From a virus: a DNA stretch of 12,143 nucleotides. Below the pieces are notes generated by a model that did no database searches, was not told where the DNA came from, and was given only the letters and a program-made list of their open reading frames with translations. Below, one piece after another: positions 4,555-10,644 of the stretch (position 1 is its first letter; every line of letters begins with the position of its first letter). A program made the translations under genes and the position numbers. The stretch spans positions 470,014 to 482,156 of the IMG/VR virus record IMGVR_UViG_3300028558_000016; one strand, given 5' to 3'.

Positions 4555-4615
4555 GCATTTATTTGATTAGTTACGAGATATATACCAAAAGAAGTCTAAA
4601 AGAAAGCAATTCAAC
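4555..4615. promoter_or_regulatory. Divergent 61-bp intergenic region between terL (minus) and the plus-strand island. It is the presumed promoter region for the 4616-9617 operon.
   Basis: This is the only non-coding DNA between the divergently oriented genes. It is AT-rich with TTGATT and TATATA elements but has no canonical sigma70 spacing. No SD precedes either start codon. Confidence 0.3.
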
Positions 4616-5323
4616 ATGAAGAGAATTAAATTGTTTGAAGCATTCATCAACGAAACTGATGATCTCGATAAGGATTTTTACACTCCAAAAGATATGGAAG
4701 AATTCAAGAAGTTTCTTGTCGATGAAATGGGCGTTAAAGCTGATCTCATAGACAAATGCATCATGAAGACAACCAAGGGACATTCAAGAGAAATCGGTCT
4801 CATGGCAATGTGGTTAAATCACAAAGCAACAGCTGAAGGAAAAGAAATCATCGAGAAATACATTCAAGATAAAATAGTTCCTAACTTTCCTGAACTCGCT
4901 TATTTAAAAGGAGAATCAGTTAAAGAATCCAATACTCTGTTTTCTTTAAAAGAAAACAAAGCAGAAGTAAAAGTTCCAGAATCAATCGATGGTGTTGCAG
5001 TTCAACAAGTAGGATTTTATGATTTCAAAAAAGCTGTCATCAAGAAAGAAGGAATAGTTCTTCTTGGAACAGGTGGTGATATTGCTGAATGGGTCAATGG
5101 AGTAACAAAGGTTCTCAATGATGAAGGAATCGCAAAAGGAACTACAAAAGATCTTTGGTCTGAAATTTATGTCATGAAAACAACAGGTGGAAGATCTGAC
5201 ACTGCATTGGTATTCGCCGAAGGAGATCACATCAATGTTGGAAAGATGGCAATGTGGAGATTGAAATTCGGTGATTGCTCATGGATCAGCGATTATTTAG
5301 ATAATTACGCAAAACAACACTAA
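4616..5323 (+). CDS. Hypothetical protein, 235 aa, with N-terminal MKRIKLFEAFINE peptide (capsid-targeting-sequence-like); candidate internal or injected protein
   Basis: ATG at 4616 opens a 235-aa ORF that has no competing frame and is tightly packed with its downstream genes. The N-terminal motif is shared with the ORFs at 5346 and 6404. I could not assign a family to the C-terminal part (GTGGDIAEW...GRSDTALVFAEGDHINVGKMAMWRLKFGD). Confidence 0.6.
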   Translation: MKRIKLFEAFINETDDLDKDFYTPKDMEEFKKFLVDEMGVKADLIDKCIMKTTKGHSREIGLMAMWLNHKATAEGKEIIEKYIQDKIVPNFPELAYLKGESVKESNTLFSLKENKAEVKVPESIDGVAVQQVGFYDFKKAVIKKEGIVLLGTGGDIAEWVNGVTKVLNDEGIAKGTTKDLWSEIYVMKTTGGRSDTALVFAEGDHINVGKMAMWRLKFGDCSWISDYLDNYAKQH

Positions 5324-5344
5324 TTAAAAAACAACACTAATTAA
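5311..5344 (+). repeat. Perfect tandem duplication, 2 x 17 bp (AAAACAACACTAATTAA), spanning the stop codon of the 4616 gene and the gap before the 5346 gene
   Basis: 5311-5327 and 5328-5344 are identical. The first copy encodes the C-terminal ...KQH plus the stop codon, and the second copy forms the intergenic spacer. Confidence 0.8.
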
Positions 5345-5345
5345 T

Positions 5346-5621
5346 ATGAACCACATTAAATTGTTTGAAGACTTTCAAGGTAAACCAGATGCTTTACAAG
5401 CATTCCTTATAAAAATCAATGCTTTGCCTGAAAATGTAATCAGAGATATAATGGGAGATGCTGAATATATTGACACTCCTGGAAATTACGATGAAGAAAA
5501 GAAAGACTACGATGACGTTGAAGACTACATGCAACAAAACATGGGAACTGAATCGTATAAAAAATTGATTGATTGGTATCACGAAAACCCGGACAAGGTA
5601 GAGAAAATCATGTCCAAGTAA
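5346..5621 (+). CDS. Small acidic hypothetical protein, 91 aa, N-terminal MNHIKLFEDF (CTS-like)
   Basis: ATG at 5346. The 16 nt ATTAAATTGTTTGAAG (5355-5370) are identical to 4625-4640 in the 4616 gene. The protein is strongly acidic (about 21 D/E versus about 11 K/R). Confidence 0.55.
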   Translation: MNHIKLFEDFQGKPDALQAFLIKINALPENVIRDIMGDAEYIDTPGNYDEEKKDYDDVEDYMQQNMGTESYKKLIDWYHENPDKVEKIMSK

Positions 5622-5650
5622 ATATATACATAAATTAACCCAAACACAAG

Positions 5651-5953
5651 ATGAATATCTTCGACATCAAACAAAGAAAGACTATGTCTTTCGAAGAATG
5701 GATGAAAAACCGTAAGGTTGCTGAAAAAGGTAGCCAAACCGAAAAAGGTGCAGCTGAAATCACCAAAGATGGTGGAGCTTTAAATCCTGAAAAAGGAAAA
5801 GCAGGTTATGACAATGCAATGGATGCTGAAAAAGCAGACCTTGACAAAGCAAAACACGCTGCAACAAAAGCTACTTACGACGGACCAGCTAAAGGTGAAG
5901 CAGGTTACGACAACGCAATGGATGATCCTAAGACGATCAACATCAAGAAGTAA
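5651..5953 (+). CDS. Hypothetical protein, 100 aa, Lys/Gly/Ala-rich with an internal duplicated (K/E)-x-G-x-AGYDNAMD motif; paralogue of the 5988 ORF
   Basis: ATG at 5651. The N-terminus MNIFDIKQRK...SFEEWMKNRKVAEKG...TEKG parallels MNTFDVSKRC...TYEEFLKDRKKA...TEKG in the 5988 ORF. An internal DNA repeat is present (see the repeat feature at 5795-5925). Confidence 0.55.
   Translation: MNIFDIKQRKTMSFEEWMKNRKVAEKGSQTEKGAAEITKDGGALNPEKGKAGYDNAMDAEKADLDKAKHAATKATYDGPAKGEAGYDNAMDDPKTINIKK
5795..5925 (+). repeat. Intragenic imperfect direct repeat (about 33 bp; copies at 5795-5827 and 5893-5925) encoding KAGYDNAMDA / EAGYDNAMDD
   Basis: gcaggttatgacaatgcaatggatg versus gcaggttacgacaacgcaatggatg match at 23 of 25 positions. 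The differences are mostly synonymous third-position changes. Confidence 0.75.
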
Positions 5954-5987
5954 TTTCAAATTTTCTAAAAAGTAATTCCTAACTCAC

Positions 5988-6404
5988 ATGAACACGTTTG
6001 ATGTAAGCAAGAGATGTATCTGGACCTATGAGGAATTCCTCAAAGACAGAAAAAAAGCTGCCGATGCAGATCACACCGAAAAAGGTGAAAATGACATTGT
6101 GAAAAAATCAATGGGCGGCGAAGTTGAAGGCAAGAAAGGTTATGCAACTCTTTCTGAAAAACACATCAAACCTTTCGAGAACTTTTTGAATGAGAAGGAA
6201 TTTTCAAAAGAGAAAAGAGAAAAACTCGCAGATAAAGGTGAAGCAATGAAAGACGGATCTTTTCCTATTGAATCTCCAGAAGATTTAAGAAATGCCATCA
6301 AGGCAGCAGGAAGAGCTAAGGACAAAGAAGCAGCTCACAAGCACATCAAGAAGAGAGCTAAAGAACTTCAGATGGGTCACCTAATTCCAAAAGATTGGAA
6401 ATAA
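5988..6404 (+). CDS. Hypothetical protein, 138 aa, Lys/Glu-rich; paralogue of the 5651 ORF. The C-terminal segment DGSFPIESPEDLRNAIKAAGRAKD is not assigned.
   Basis: ATG at 5988. The N-terminal roughly 35 aa are shared with the 5651 ORF, and both contain the identical 13 nt accgaaaaaggtg. The stop TAA at 6402-6404 overlaps the next ATG (TAATG). Confidence 0.55.
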   Translation: MNTFDVSKRCIWTYEEFLKDRKKAADADHTEKGENDIVKKSMGGEVEGKKGYATLSEKHIKPFENFLNEKEFSKEKREKLADKGEAMKDGSFPIESPEDLRNAIKAAGRAKDKEAAHKHIKKRAKELQMGHLIPKDWK

Positions 6405-9617: not shown

Positions 9618-9621
9618 TTCA

Positions 9622-9650
9622 ATCCCTCCTTCCTGGAGGGATTTTTGTTT
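9622..9650 (+). terminator. Rho-independent terminator with an 8-bp GC-rich stem (ATCCCTCC/GGAGGGAT), a 5-nt loop and a TTTTTGTTT tract
   Basis: A perfect inverted repeat at 9622-9629 and 9635-9642 is followed by a T-run, 4 nt after the stop of the 9264 gene. Confidence 0.75.
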
Positions 9651-9876
9651 TACATAATTCATGTTAAAACACTGATAATTATGTAACATTTTATGAACAT
9701 TATGTAACAATTAACAACAAGAATGTTCGTAAATTTGTACACGATTATACCCAATATGCTTACTAAAATACACATTTAAGTTGAACGGATGCATTAACCT
9801 GTTGAAACTCAATAAGTAACATTGCCGGCATAATTTTAACTACGTAATCAATATAAACCAATAAATAAATAAAACC
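9651..9876 (+). promoter_or_regulatory. 226-bp AT-rich non-coding region upstream of the 9877 gene; putative promoter or regulatory region
   Basis: No ORF of 60 aa or more on either strand. It contains tandem TTATG(T)AACA repeats, a MotA-box-like aTGCTTAc (about 9755-9762) with a TAnnnT about 13 nt downstream, a TAAATTTG element (9730-9737) and an A-rich leader. All of these are weak matches in AT-rich DNA. Confidence 0.3.
9679..9709 (+). repeat. Three tandem copies of TTATG(T)AACA (at 9679-9688, 9691-9699 and 9700-9709)
   Basis: Read directly: aaTTATGTAACAtt TTATGAACA TTATGTAACAatt. The approximate period is 10-11 bp, about one helical turn. Confidence 0.6.
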
Positions 9877-10278
9877 ATGAAAACCACGAGAACGTCAAAC
9901 ATCAGAAACAAAAAGAAAACAAAGAAAAACAGAGATTACTCTAAGTACCTATTCAAAGGTGAACAGTACGGTAAAGGAACTCTTGTTCATGCAGTAATCA
10001 GCGACTATGCTAAAGAGCATCCACGCACAACGGCTGAAAAACTGCAAAGCATCTTTCCAAGGAAAGTAATTCATTCAACATTTGAAGTTGTTGAAACAGT
10101 TAAGAAAGCAACAAAGGGACGTTTCTTCTTAAATCCCGATCTTCTAATTAAAACCGCAAACTCTAAAGTGGCTGTAACAAGTCAATGGAGCAAAAACAAC
10201 ATCGACTCATTCATCGATTTTGTGAAGAAAAACCTCCACATGCGGATACAGCACAGGTCATACAAAATGGCCGCTTAA
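9877..10278 (+). CDS. Hypothetical basic protein, 133 aa, with an N-terminal Lys/Arg-rich tail (RNKKKTKKNRDYSKY); possible nucleic-acid-binding protein
   Basis: ATG at 9877. The gene sits between the promoter region and its own terminator, so it looks monocistronic. Family not recognised. Confidence 0.55.
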   Translation: MKTTRTSNIRNKKKTKKNRDYSKYLFKGEQYGKGTLVHAVISDYAKEHPRTTAEKLQSIFPRKVIHSTFEVVETVKKATKGRFFLNPDLLIKTANSKVAVTSQWSKNNIDSFIDFVKKNLHMRIQHRSYKMAA

Positions 10279-10282
10279 AATT

Positions 10283-10316
10283 AAATCCCCTTCTAATTAG
10301 AAGGGGATTTTTTATT
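10283..10316 (+). terminator. Rho-independent terminator: palindrome AAATCCCCTTCTA-at-TAGAAGGGGATTT followed by a TTTTTTATTT tract
   Basis: An 11-13-bp perfect inverted repeat starts 5 nt after the stop at 10278 and is followed by a T-run. Confidence 0.75.
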
Positions 10317-10342
10317 TAACTAAACTTTACTAACTAAACTTT
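10317..10342 (+). repeat. Direct repeat TAACTAAACTTT x2 (10317-10328 and 10331-10342) upstream of the 10360 gene
   Basis: Two perfect 12-bp copies separated by 2 bp lie between the terminator and the next start codon. They may be an operator or promoter element. Confidence 0.5.
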
Positions 10343-10359
10343 TAAAAAATGGAATAGAT

Positions 10360-10644
10360 ATGAACAAAATACAATCGGAAGAAAAAAGATTAATATTGAC
10401 AATTGCTTTGAAACAAGAATTGATAAAGATCGATCCATCACACTACGTGCCAATTGAAGAATGTTACATCAAACTTGATGATGCTAAAAAAGCCTGCCCA
10501 TCTTATACCCCCACCGAAAAATTTCACTTTGATGTAGTAGAACACGGAAGAACTTCAAAAGTTCATTTCGTTAAATGTCATGATGTGTTGAATACGATAA
10601 TAATGAAAAATAATCTAATGCACTACGATTGGTATAAATTATAA
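10360..10644 (+). CDS. Hypothetical protein, 94 aa, with Cys/His residues (C35, C46, H-x-x-x-H, C-H) that could form a metal-binding site
   Basis: ATG at 10360. An upstream ATG at 10349 is followed by an immediate stop. The stop TAA at 10642-10644 abuts the terS stop on the other strand. Confidence 0.45.
   Translation: MNKIQSEEKRLILTIALKQELIKIDPSHYVPIEECYIKLDDAKKACPSYTPTEKFHFDVVEHGRTSKVHFVKCHDVLNTIIMKNNLMHYDWYKL

Follow-up and report, generated by a model that had tools for sequence, protein, structure and literature searches.

An island of leader-bearing genes between terL and a probable terS gene in a 482-kb T4-related phage, with leaders resembling the T4 capsid targeting sequence

The stretch of DNA analysed in this study (12,143 nt, hereafter the window) corresponds to positions 470,014 to 482,156 of the IMG/VR virus record IMGVR_UViG_3300028558_000016, a metagenomic assembly of a T4-related phage of ~482 kb. 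Ten plus-strand genes, here named i1 to i10 (4616-10644), form an island between the minus-strand gene of the large terminase, terL, and a minus-strand gene of 266 aa that is probably the small terminase gene, terS. We found that at least six of the ten island genes consist of an N-terminal leader and an exchangeable cargo, that the leaders are of two types, and that the shorter type resembles the capsid targeting sequence (CTS) of the T4 internal proteins. By analogy with T4, we lean slightly towards the view that the island is an array of leader-cargo proteins that would be packaged into the head, trimmed by a protease and ejected into the host, where they may serve in counter-defence or takeover. 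That the island is hypervariable and splits a real terS-terL pair is a conclusion that we hold with good confidence. With somewhat more doubt than belief, we also suggest that the 13-residue leader may be a general head-packing and cleavage tag of a large uncultured T4-related group, including genomes of 100-480 kb.

The first leader type comprises 13 residues with the consensus M-K-x-I-K-L-F-E-x-F-[ILV]-x-E, and is found in i1, i5 and i2 and, in a degenerate form, in i8. The string MKxIKLFExF starts i1 (235 aa, 4616..5323, +), i2 (91 aa, 5346..5621, +) and i5 (131 aa, 6404..6799, +), and [ILV]xE comes next in i1 and i5. The leader of i1, MKRIKLFEAFINE, occupies 4616-4654 and is followed by the cargo, as is the leader of i5, MKHLKLFEGFLNE; the i2 leader, MNHIKLFEDFQGK (MNHIKLFEDF), is without [ILV]xE and precedes an acidic cargo. 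The position-specific scoring matrix of the leader gave scores of 35.6 for i1, 30.8 for i5 and 22.8 for i2, and the 5' 43 nt of i2 repeat those of i1 at 74% identity. The degenerate leader of i8 (117 aa, 9264..9617, +) is MIKKFNDFKLDE, and the i8 orthologue of the related phage locus L001, which is 61% identical, begins with MKHLKLFEAV. The second leader type is a module of 57 residues, MN[IT]FD..KR....[FY]EE[FW].., common to i3 and i4. In i3 (100 aa, 5651..5953, +), the N-module MNIFDIKQRKTMSFEEW is followed by a charged body with an internal GKAGYDNAMD repeat. The module ends in ...GKKGYATL[SD]E in the i4 lineage; in i4 itself (138 aa, 5988..6404, +) it spans 5988-6158, ends in GYATLSE, and is followed by an internal in-frame copy of the leader, KHIKPFENFLNE (6159-6194), and by a GSFPI..DLRNAI..GRA domain. 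The putative cut motifs are INE in i1, LNE in i5, LDE in i8 and both LSE and LNE in i4, and i2 has no such site. Within the 20.8-kb source locus, all three high-scoring leader open reading frames (ORFs) lie inside the island, and the relatives that have no island have none.

Previous investigations of T4 have described what such a leader can do. A review of the subject reports that the ten residues of the T4 CTS suffice for head loading, that residues 4 and 7 serve targeting and residues 8 and 10 serve cleavage by gp21, and that Asp at position 10 blocks cleavage and keeps targeting (PMC9026906). It was also documented that the internal proteins of T-even phages are diverse defence proteins with only the CTS in common (PMC3012670), and that the T4 cargo IPI* is an anti-restriction protein (PMC3012670; PMC9026906). 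T4 IPII and IPIII begin with MKTYQEFIAE. When KLFEAFINE of i1 and KLFEGFLNE of i5 were set against the T4 string KTYQEFIAE, the pattern aromatic-x-x-F-[IL]-x-E was kept and the four functional positions were retained. Taken as a pattern of letters, the F-x-x-F of i1, i2 and i5 stands in register with Y4 and F7 of T4, and i4 has Y-E-E-F, its TYEEFLKD lining up with TYQEFIAE of T4.

The leader is also associated with the gp21-type head maturation protease. We fetched 80 loci around the gp21-family protease and scanned 62 of them for the leader, and a leader ORF was present in 37 of the 62. The protease in the leader loci is a head maturation protease, as it matches phrog_207 at 7.7e-41 and T4 gp21 at E 1e-9 to 1e-11; its closest GenBank relatives are found in the same 460-735-kb uncultured phages as those of terL, followed by hundreds of T4-like gp21 proteins. 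In most of the 37 loci, the leader gene lies directly upstream of the protease gene, starts 390-444 nt before it and encodes a protein of 110-130 aa whose tail is acidic. Several loci have a leader ORF that begins 3-22 nt past the protease gene, and a few others have one 0.7-5 kb off. The locus L113, for example, has a portal gene, a 110-aa leader ORF and a gp21-like protease gene in that order, and L053 has portal, protease, two leader ORFs and a gp23-like capsid protein. The slot directly upstream of the protease gene is the one held in T4 by genes 67 and 68, between portal and protease. The protease-adjacent leader proteins matched no PHROG family, so that homology to gp67 or gp68 is not demonstrable and gene position alone is analogous.

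IMG/VR was scanned for the leader with a degenerate DNA pattern fixing only M-[KN]-x-[IL]-K-L-F-E-x-F, and ORFs of at least 50 aa were kept. At least 117 IMG/VR stretches contain the pattern, with at least 143 matches, nearly all of them at ORF starts. Among the matches listed, on which the following figures are based, there are at least 123 non-redundant leader ORFs of 55-476 aa, their cargos fall into at least 97 clusters, and tandem leader arrays are frequent. The pattern left some positions free. Of these, position 11 holds I, V or L in 59% of the ORFs and position 13 holds E in 62% and D in 11%; H, Y or R stand at position 3, and N, S, T or A at position 12. The motif [ILVM]-x-E occurs at positions 11-13 in 51%, compared with 1.6% per position elsewhere in the same proteins, and conservation stops after residue 13. 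The codons vary synonymously (Leu6: TTA 58, CTA 48, CTT 11), and the 40 nt upstream of the leader ORFs were A-rich only, with no Shine-Dalgarno sequence and no nucleotide motif. The synonymous variation and the motif-free upstream regions point to selection on the leader peptide and to Bacteroidota-like translation initiation. For the phage of the window, the A-rich, Shine-Dalgarno-free start regions suggest a host of Bacteroidota type.

The leader is restricted to viruses and essentially absent from cellular genomes. In a control of 596 Gb of bacterial and archaeal genomes, 121 matches were obtained, of which 31 were ORF-start-like and 2 carried [ILVM]xE. The few convincing cellular copies lie in contigs of Bacteroidota metagenome-assembled genomes and are probably phage. 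The leader string had no match in the literature searched, where the term 'capsid targeting sequence' was not linked to cyanophage, jumbo phage or metagenomes either. As a separate observation, in Salicola phage SCTP-2 (L180, 440 kb) neighbouring genes at 2312-4571 start with ..YMSLLENAE and ..YLKLLENTE, and gp459 contains TKLFEDE; this motif may represent a variant of the leader in a jumbo phage of gammaproteobacteria.

Nucleotide homology between the window and its relatives breaks off at or within the leaders. In i1, it ends at 4654 (codon 13) against L002 and at 4639 (codon 8) against L140, and in i4 it ends at 6158 (codon 57, directly past LSE) in L140, L141, L002 and L001. Behind a shared upstream region and leader, the window, L002 and L140 carry cargos that are unrelated to one another. 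The N-module of i4 is found with variable C-termini in L001, L002, L138, L139 and L140, and L001, L138 and L139 carry other domains behind it. In L002, the cargo of i5 is fused behind the i4 N-module, residues 55-157 of L002_8488 being 43% identical to residues 14-125 of i5. Nucleotide mapping identified three segments of the window that L140 lacks: 4640-5620, 6405-9859 and 10278-10644. We also observed second arrays of leader ORFs downstream of the sheath gene in close relatives (L002 17136-18615, L138 20359-20789); the terS-terL gap is therefore not the sole array site.

The first-pass annotation had called the region a hyperplastic accessory locus, and the comparison with relatives agreed with this. 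The site holds 0, 1.55, 1.8, 2.6, 2.8 or 6.1 kb across relatives, with different genes. With the terminase match to the window given in brackets, nothing lies between terS and terL in L004, L005 and L007 (terL 56%), whereas three genes on 1.55 kb were found in L002 (terS 82%), five genes on 1.8 kb in L001 (terL 88%), and four opposite-strand genes on 2.6 kb in L139 (terS 68%) and L140 (terS 87%) or on 2.8 kb in L138 (terS 63%). L142 has i3, i4, i6 and i7 plus a different first gene between terS and terL, and the 373-kb contig L008 (terS 45%) has 2.7 kb of unrelated same-strand genes. When the relatives were aligned, the gene sets overlapped only partly, and owing to this mosaic content the region does not form a stable conserved syntenic block. 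In L008, we noted in addition that the terL gene (7690-12517) encodes 1276 aa with two intein-like insertions, and that a 336-aa paralogue of the terL ATPase domain and an APS-kinase-like gene precede it.

The island genes differ in how widely they are shared. Each of i3, i4, i5, i6, i7, i8 and i9 has orthologues in the islands of related phages, i3 being conserved at 70-78% in close relatives. Among the loci examined, i2 is confined to this window, with no match in relatives, and none of the relatives examined has a counterpart of i10 (94 aa, 10360..10644, +), which ends exactly where the terS stop codon begins. Of all the island genes, i9 (133 aa, 9877..10278, +) is the most constant. It has a basic N-terminus and no leader, always adjoins terS in the relatives, has its own upstream region and terminator, and is restricted to this clade; its identity is 60% in L138 and 76% in L140, and its family comprises only 11 clusters.

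The cargos have homologues of several kinds, so that the first-pass description of genes with no recognisable homologues holds in part. No island protein matched Pfam or NCBIfam above the cut-off, but the C-terminus of i4, the C-domain of i1 and the genes i3-i9 do have homologues. Over its C-terminal 70 aa, i4 shares 53-67% identity with the C-terminal ends of capsid maturation proteases from the actinophages of Gordonia and Microbacterium, and this domain matches phrog_80 at 2e-6 and also a portal-annotated protein. The C-terminal domain of i1, of ~105 aa, belongs to an unannotated family of 475 representative clusters that includes a match to gp597 of Bacillus phage G (46%), and it is found free-standing or within proteins of up to 1387 aa. 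The leader is attached to this domain in the window protein and in one other of 150 representatives, and a Pfam search with nine large multidomain homologues gave one domain of unknown function only. Other leader cargos match domains that are fused to prohead protease, portal and capsid proteins of haloarchaeal and marine phages, and also DarB-like antirestriction proteins and CHAP peptidoglycan hydrolases.

Taken together with the T4 work, these data suggest a mechanism. By analogy with the T4 CTS, the leader would attach its protein to the scaffolding core while the head assembles, and a head maturation protease of the gp21 family would cleave past the Glu of [ILV]-x-E. The freed cargo would remain in the head with the DNA and be ejected into the next host, where it would act before any phage gene is expressed, either in counter-defence or in host takeover. 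The leader-coding DNA may double as a recombination junction for cargo swaps, by which the locus would come to differ between close relatives. The variability of the island, the leader-cargo build, the restriction of the leader to viruses, its association with gp21-type protease genes and the recombination breakpoints are observations; head targeting, cleavage, ejection and anti-defence activity we infer from the likeness to the T4 CTS. This likeness strengthens the earlier proposal to search the locus for anti-defence functions.

Several points weigh against this proposal. A likeness to the T4 CTS over 10-13 residues could be convergent. The genes i6, i7, i9 and i10, among them the largest and the most conserved of the island, are without a leader, and about half of the metagenomic leader ORFs listed, as well as i2, are without [ILV]xE at positions 11-13. 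The head protease of this phage would be encoded outside the window, and it is taken to be of gp21 type only from leader-bearing contigs and the closest huge-phage relatives, both of which encode such proteases. No leader ORF stands beside the protease in the huge phages LR745206 and LR756500, and no leader was found in the first 50 kb, the part scanned, of a cultured relative, Tenacibaculum phage PTm1. Moreover, head incorporation would need late expression, and no late promoter of the island was found: even when one mismatch is allowed, the T4-type late-promoter octamer TATAAATA does not occur in the 61-bp divergent intergenic region between terL and i1 (4555..4615), which is conserved in L002, L140 and L001. 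ATAAATA occurs upstream of 15% of leader ORFs and of 8% of other ORFs, a weak enrichment over a crude control set. The sole exact copy of TATAAATA in the window (2691..2698, -) lies 21 nt upstream of the sheath ATG, with no comparable site before terL or the island. As a late promoter this single site is no more than suggestive, and the counts of TAnnTTTG and TATAAATA in the window are at chance level.

The same facts would suit an ordinary early or middle accessory island that encodes cytoplasmic proteins, in which the shared N-terminus would be a lineage helix for docking, solubility or turnover, unrelated to the capsid. The strand opposite to the late genes, the island's own terminators and the missing late promoter agree with this, as do leaders on ordinary-looking enzymes such as a P-loop NTPase and an FAD-type Rossmann protein. 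It also agrees with the host-type -7 box TAAATTTG and the paired repeats upstream of i9, where two 19-nt direct repeats with a ATTATGTAACA core and 21-nt spacing lie together with TAAATTTG in the 259-nt gap (9673..9737, +); the repeats could be an operator and TAAATTTG a -7 element of Bacteroidota type. However, the opposite orientation is no argument for early expression, since T4 ipII and ipIII are also opposite to genes 13-24, the main late block. A cytoplasmic role would leave unexplained that conservation ends in [ILV]-x-E, that a leader gene holds a fixed slot beside the gp21-type protease in 37 of 62 loci, and that cargos carry head-protease C-terminal and DarB-like domains. We consider it unlikely. 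We give very little credence to the idea that the conserved 5' end acts at the nucleotide level, as a mobile cassette for translation start or recombination similar to the promoter(early)-stem-loop (PeSL) cassettes of T4-type hyperplastic regions, with an incidental peptide. The homology breakpoints at the leader ends, a leader made of AT-rich codons only and the repeated starts of i1 and i2 would fit such an element, but the codons vary synonymously while the amino acids stay fixed, only A-richness is conserved upstream of the ATG, i4 contains an internal in-frame leader copy, and two terminators for ten genes do not make a promoter-plus-stem-loop cassette. Recombination at the leaders is compatible with head-packaged leader-cargo proteins and is not opposed to them.

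Little weight is also given to a reading of the island as mainly late structural accessories, in which i6 and i7 would decorate the head or tail or form fibres and the small genes would supply assembly factors. This would suit the position of the island among structural genes and the character of i6 (713 aa, 6811..8952, +), which accounts for a third of the island and in which a coiled-coil N-terminal helix and a Ser/Thr/Gly-rich linker precede two beta-propeller-like regions. The AlphaFold2 model of i6 is all-beta with a predicted local distance difference test score (pLDDT) of 54, and the Foldseek matches were all tandem propellers at TM-scores of only 0.15-0.2; it gives a hint that i6 is two beta-propellers behind a helix and a linker. 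i6 is a near-orphan, with only 3 homologues among 5.8 billion clusters. One of them, of 47% identity, is found in the same position beside terL in L142 and is followed by an orthologue of i7 (96 aa, 8971..9261, +), the gene that accompanies i6, so the pair is conserved there. On the other side, i6 and i7 are absent from L001, L002, L138, L139 and L140, which makes them dispensable, the i6 model is of low confidence, and the leader genes are left unaddressed.

Whether anything is split at this site depends on the 266-aa ORF (10645..11445, -), which is probably a divergent small terminase of T4 gp16 type on the basis of synteny, profile comparison and a predicted structure. The ORF has no Pfam or PHROG assignment above threshold, so that the terS label of the first-pass annotation was a guess, but synteny, hhalign and weak phrog_735 matches agree in its favour. 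In L004, L005 and L007, an orthologue of 34-36% identity stops 2 nt before terL (in L005, terS 9198-9956 and terL 9959-11779) and the sheath gene comes next, which is the order of T4 genes 16-17-18. It is in these three distant relatives that the candidate lies immediately upstream of terL and co-oriented with it, not in the window or close relatives; in T4, where the adjacency of the two genes had been cited correctly, genes 16 and 17 overlap by 17 nt. An hhalign comparison with 25 T4-family gp16 sequences gave 71 collinear columns at E 9.5e-4 with a probability of only 22%, with a PRxxEVxAxLxxQM motif inside the match, compared with E 0.03-0.75 when other T4 proteins of the neck and head were used and 0.36 when the gp16 alignment was reversed. 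Within the ORF family (47 homologues in the 5.8-billion-cluster collection, all unnamed), the PHROG family matched by the largest number of members is phrog_735, weakly and for some members only (0.003-0.008); T4 gp16 itself matches it at 2e-77. AlphaFold2 predicted a long helical hairpin (helices 93-128 and 134-185, pLDDT 85-94).

It is improbable, in our judgement, that the ORF is no small terminase, in which case nothing would be split and the plus-strand genes would merely lie upstream of terL. For such a reading speak the missing Pfam or PHROG assignment, the Foldseek search with the model, which returned generic coiled coils only, the length of 266 aa, which far exceeds the 164 aa of T4 gp16, and the ORF upstream of terL in PTm1, which showed no similarity to the candidate. 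A PDB profile search gave no match. The 2-nt spacing to terL in three distant relatives, the gene order, the selection of gp16 by hhalign over other T4 head or neck proteins, the phrog_735 matches and the predicted hairpin all argue for terS. The candidate is like T4 gp16 in its position before terL in distant relatives, in the PRxxEVxAxLxxQM motif and in the predicted central helical hairpin. It differs in being ~100 residues longer, in falling below every curated family threshold and in lying 6.1 kb from terL.

The remaining layout of the window largely bears out the first-pass annotation. The tail sheath gene (1..2670, -; its 3' part lies beyond the left window end) matched phrog_34521 (tail sheath, 5.3e-118) and Pfam Phage_sheath_1C (4.6e-9), and terL (604 aa, 2740..4554, -) matched Pfam Terminase_6N (1.4e-20) and phrog_5989 (2.9e-52), which places both on the minus strand as had been claimed. 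The best GenBank phage relatives of terL are 460-735-kb uncultured phages, Lak phages, PAU and PTm1, at 30-37% identity. The ten plus-strand ORFs were called independently on the 482-kb source contig, k141_1209612 of ENA ERZ27245401, too, and the ~6.1 kb between terL and the 266-aa ORF stands. The composition is distinct as stated: the AT skew reverses sign at both island borders, and the GC content is 0.29-0.35 over 7250-10750, with a value of about 0.31 in the right half, against 0.37-0.42 in the flanks. The tight packing described earlier, with gaps of -1 to 34 nt, applies to i1-i8 (22, 29, 34, -1, 11, 18 and 2 nt) but not to i8-i9 (259 nt) and i9-i10 (81 nt). The island does have its own terminators, but no more than two convincing plus-strand sites of a hairpin plus a T run: an intrinsic-terminator-like hairpin of 9 pairs, 5 of them G-C, closes the i1-i8 unit (9621..9643, +), and a perfect 12-bp hairpin detected in a hairpin search terminates i9 (10283..10310, +). 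The two sites suggest about three transcription units rather than ten. A further 16-pair hairpin with a T-rich tail (10721-10755, +) lies in the 3' coding end of terS, 77 nt beyond the i10 stop, and could be the i10 terminator or a chance match. The window contains no tRNA gene, with two Rfam matches far below threshold; the island contains no transposase, homing endonuclease or long terminal repeats; and megablast of the whole window against GenBank phages gave no close DNA relative.

Upstream of terS, and overlapping its start by 8 nt, is a gene for an Acb1-like 2H phosphoesterase (11438..11962, -). Just below the cut-offs, it matches Pfam Acb1 at 5e-5 (23.4 bits, cut-off 27) and 2_5_RNA_ligase2 at 7e-6 (26.6 bits, cut-off 27), and the protein has two H-x-[ST]-x motifs, HVTV and HTTI; its only sequence matches in the PDB are Acb1 proteins, at E 0.0055 to 0.064. 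A full leader, MKHIKLFEEF[VM]xE, starts the orthologues in L095 and L080; in the window copy it is degenerate, MAIETFKDFKV, and in the L008 copy it is absent. Further upstream, the source contig (L135, 5379-9444) encodes an RF-1-domain protein, a DUF4326 protein, an RNaseH-like protein, a T4 Rnl1-type RNA ligase and cREC_REC.

Proteins that enter with the phage DNA act before phage transcription and are prime candidates against restriction, the cyclic oligonucleotide-based anti-phage signalling system (CBASS) and other immediate defences. To our knowledge, outside a few model phages, injected proteins can be found only by virion proteomics. If the 13-residue leader is indeed a general tag, the set of proteins injected by such phages would be readable straight from sequence, and the question of what an uncultured phage injects would be opened to metagenomes, beginning with at least 123 tagged proteins in at least 97 cargo groups. 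Islands in the terS-terL gap and downstream of the sheath gene would then hold arsenals of injected effectors, with recombination at the tag exchanging the cargos, which would explain gene islands inside otherwise rigid structural modules. The tagged Acb1-like phosphodiesterase of some phages would be an anti-CBASS enzyme delivered pre-made with the DNA. The tag would also serve as a portable capsid-loading signal in non-model phages, as the CTS does in T4. For annotation, the split pair means that terS/terL adjacency is an unsafe rule in large T4-related phages.

Hyperplastic regions are already established for T4-type phages and are tied there to promoter-stem-loop cassettes. The island is like the regions reported in T4-type phages (PMC2839356, PMC4122927) in that small variable genes lie among conserved core genes and are inserted, deleted or replaced between close relatives with breakpoints at short conserved sequences. 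In contrast to the PeSL type, in which each gene lies between an early promoter and a stem-loop, the junctions here are coding leaders, there are two terminators and hairpins for ten genes, no upstream motif is conserved, and sigma-70-like sites are fewer than in shuffles. T4 itself, unlike the phage studied here, has no hyperplastic region between genes 16 and 17.

The CTS and polymorphic internal proteins are likewise already established for T-even phages. Our leader proteins agree with T4 IPI, IPII and IPIII in the short N-terminal leader, the aromatic targeting residues and the [IL]-x-E cut site, in the unrelated cargos that differ between related phages, and in a gene location away from the main late block and on the opposite strand. 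Packaging and cleavage are demonstrated for the T4 proteins, whereas here they are predicted. The leader is three residues longer than the T4 CTS and has another consensus, a second type of 57 residues accompanies it, and the array sits between terS and terL in uncultured 100-480-kb phages with starts that lack a Shine-Dalgarno sequence. It was also reported that phiKZ, 201phi2-1 and SPN3US have many head-internal proteins whose propeptides are removed after Glu by a gp21-related protease (PMC9026906). These inner-body proteins and the Dar proteins of P1 are similar as head-internal proteins delivered with the DNA, and some leader cargos are DarB-like; they use other motifs (S/A/G-x-E) or other routes of incorporation and have no common 13-residue N-terminal tag. 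Compared with these systems, the leader consensus and its breadth, the 57-aa leader type, the array between terS and terL and the tagged Acb1-like enzymes appear to be new.

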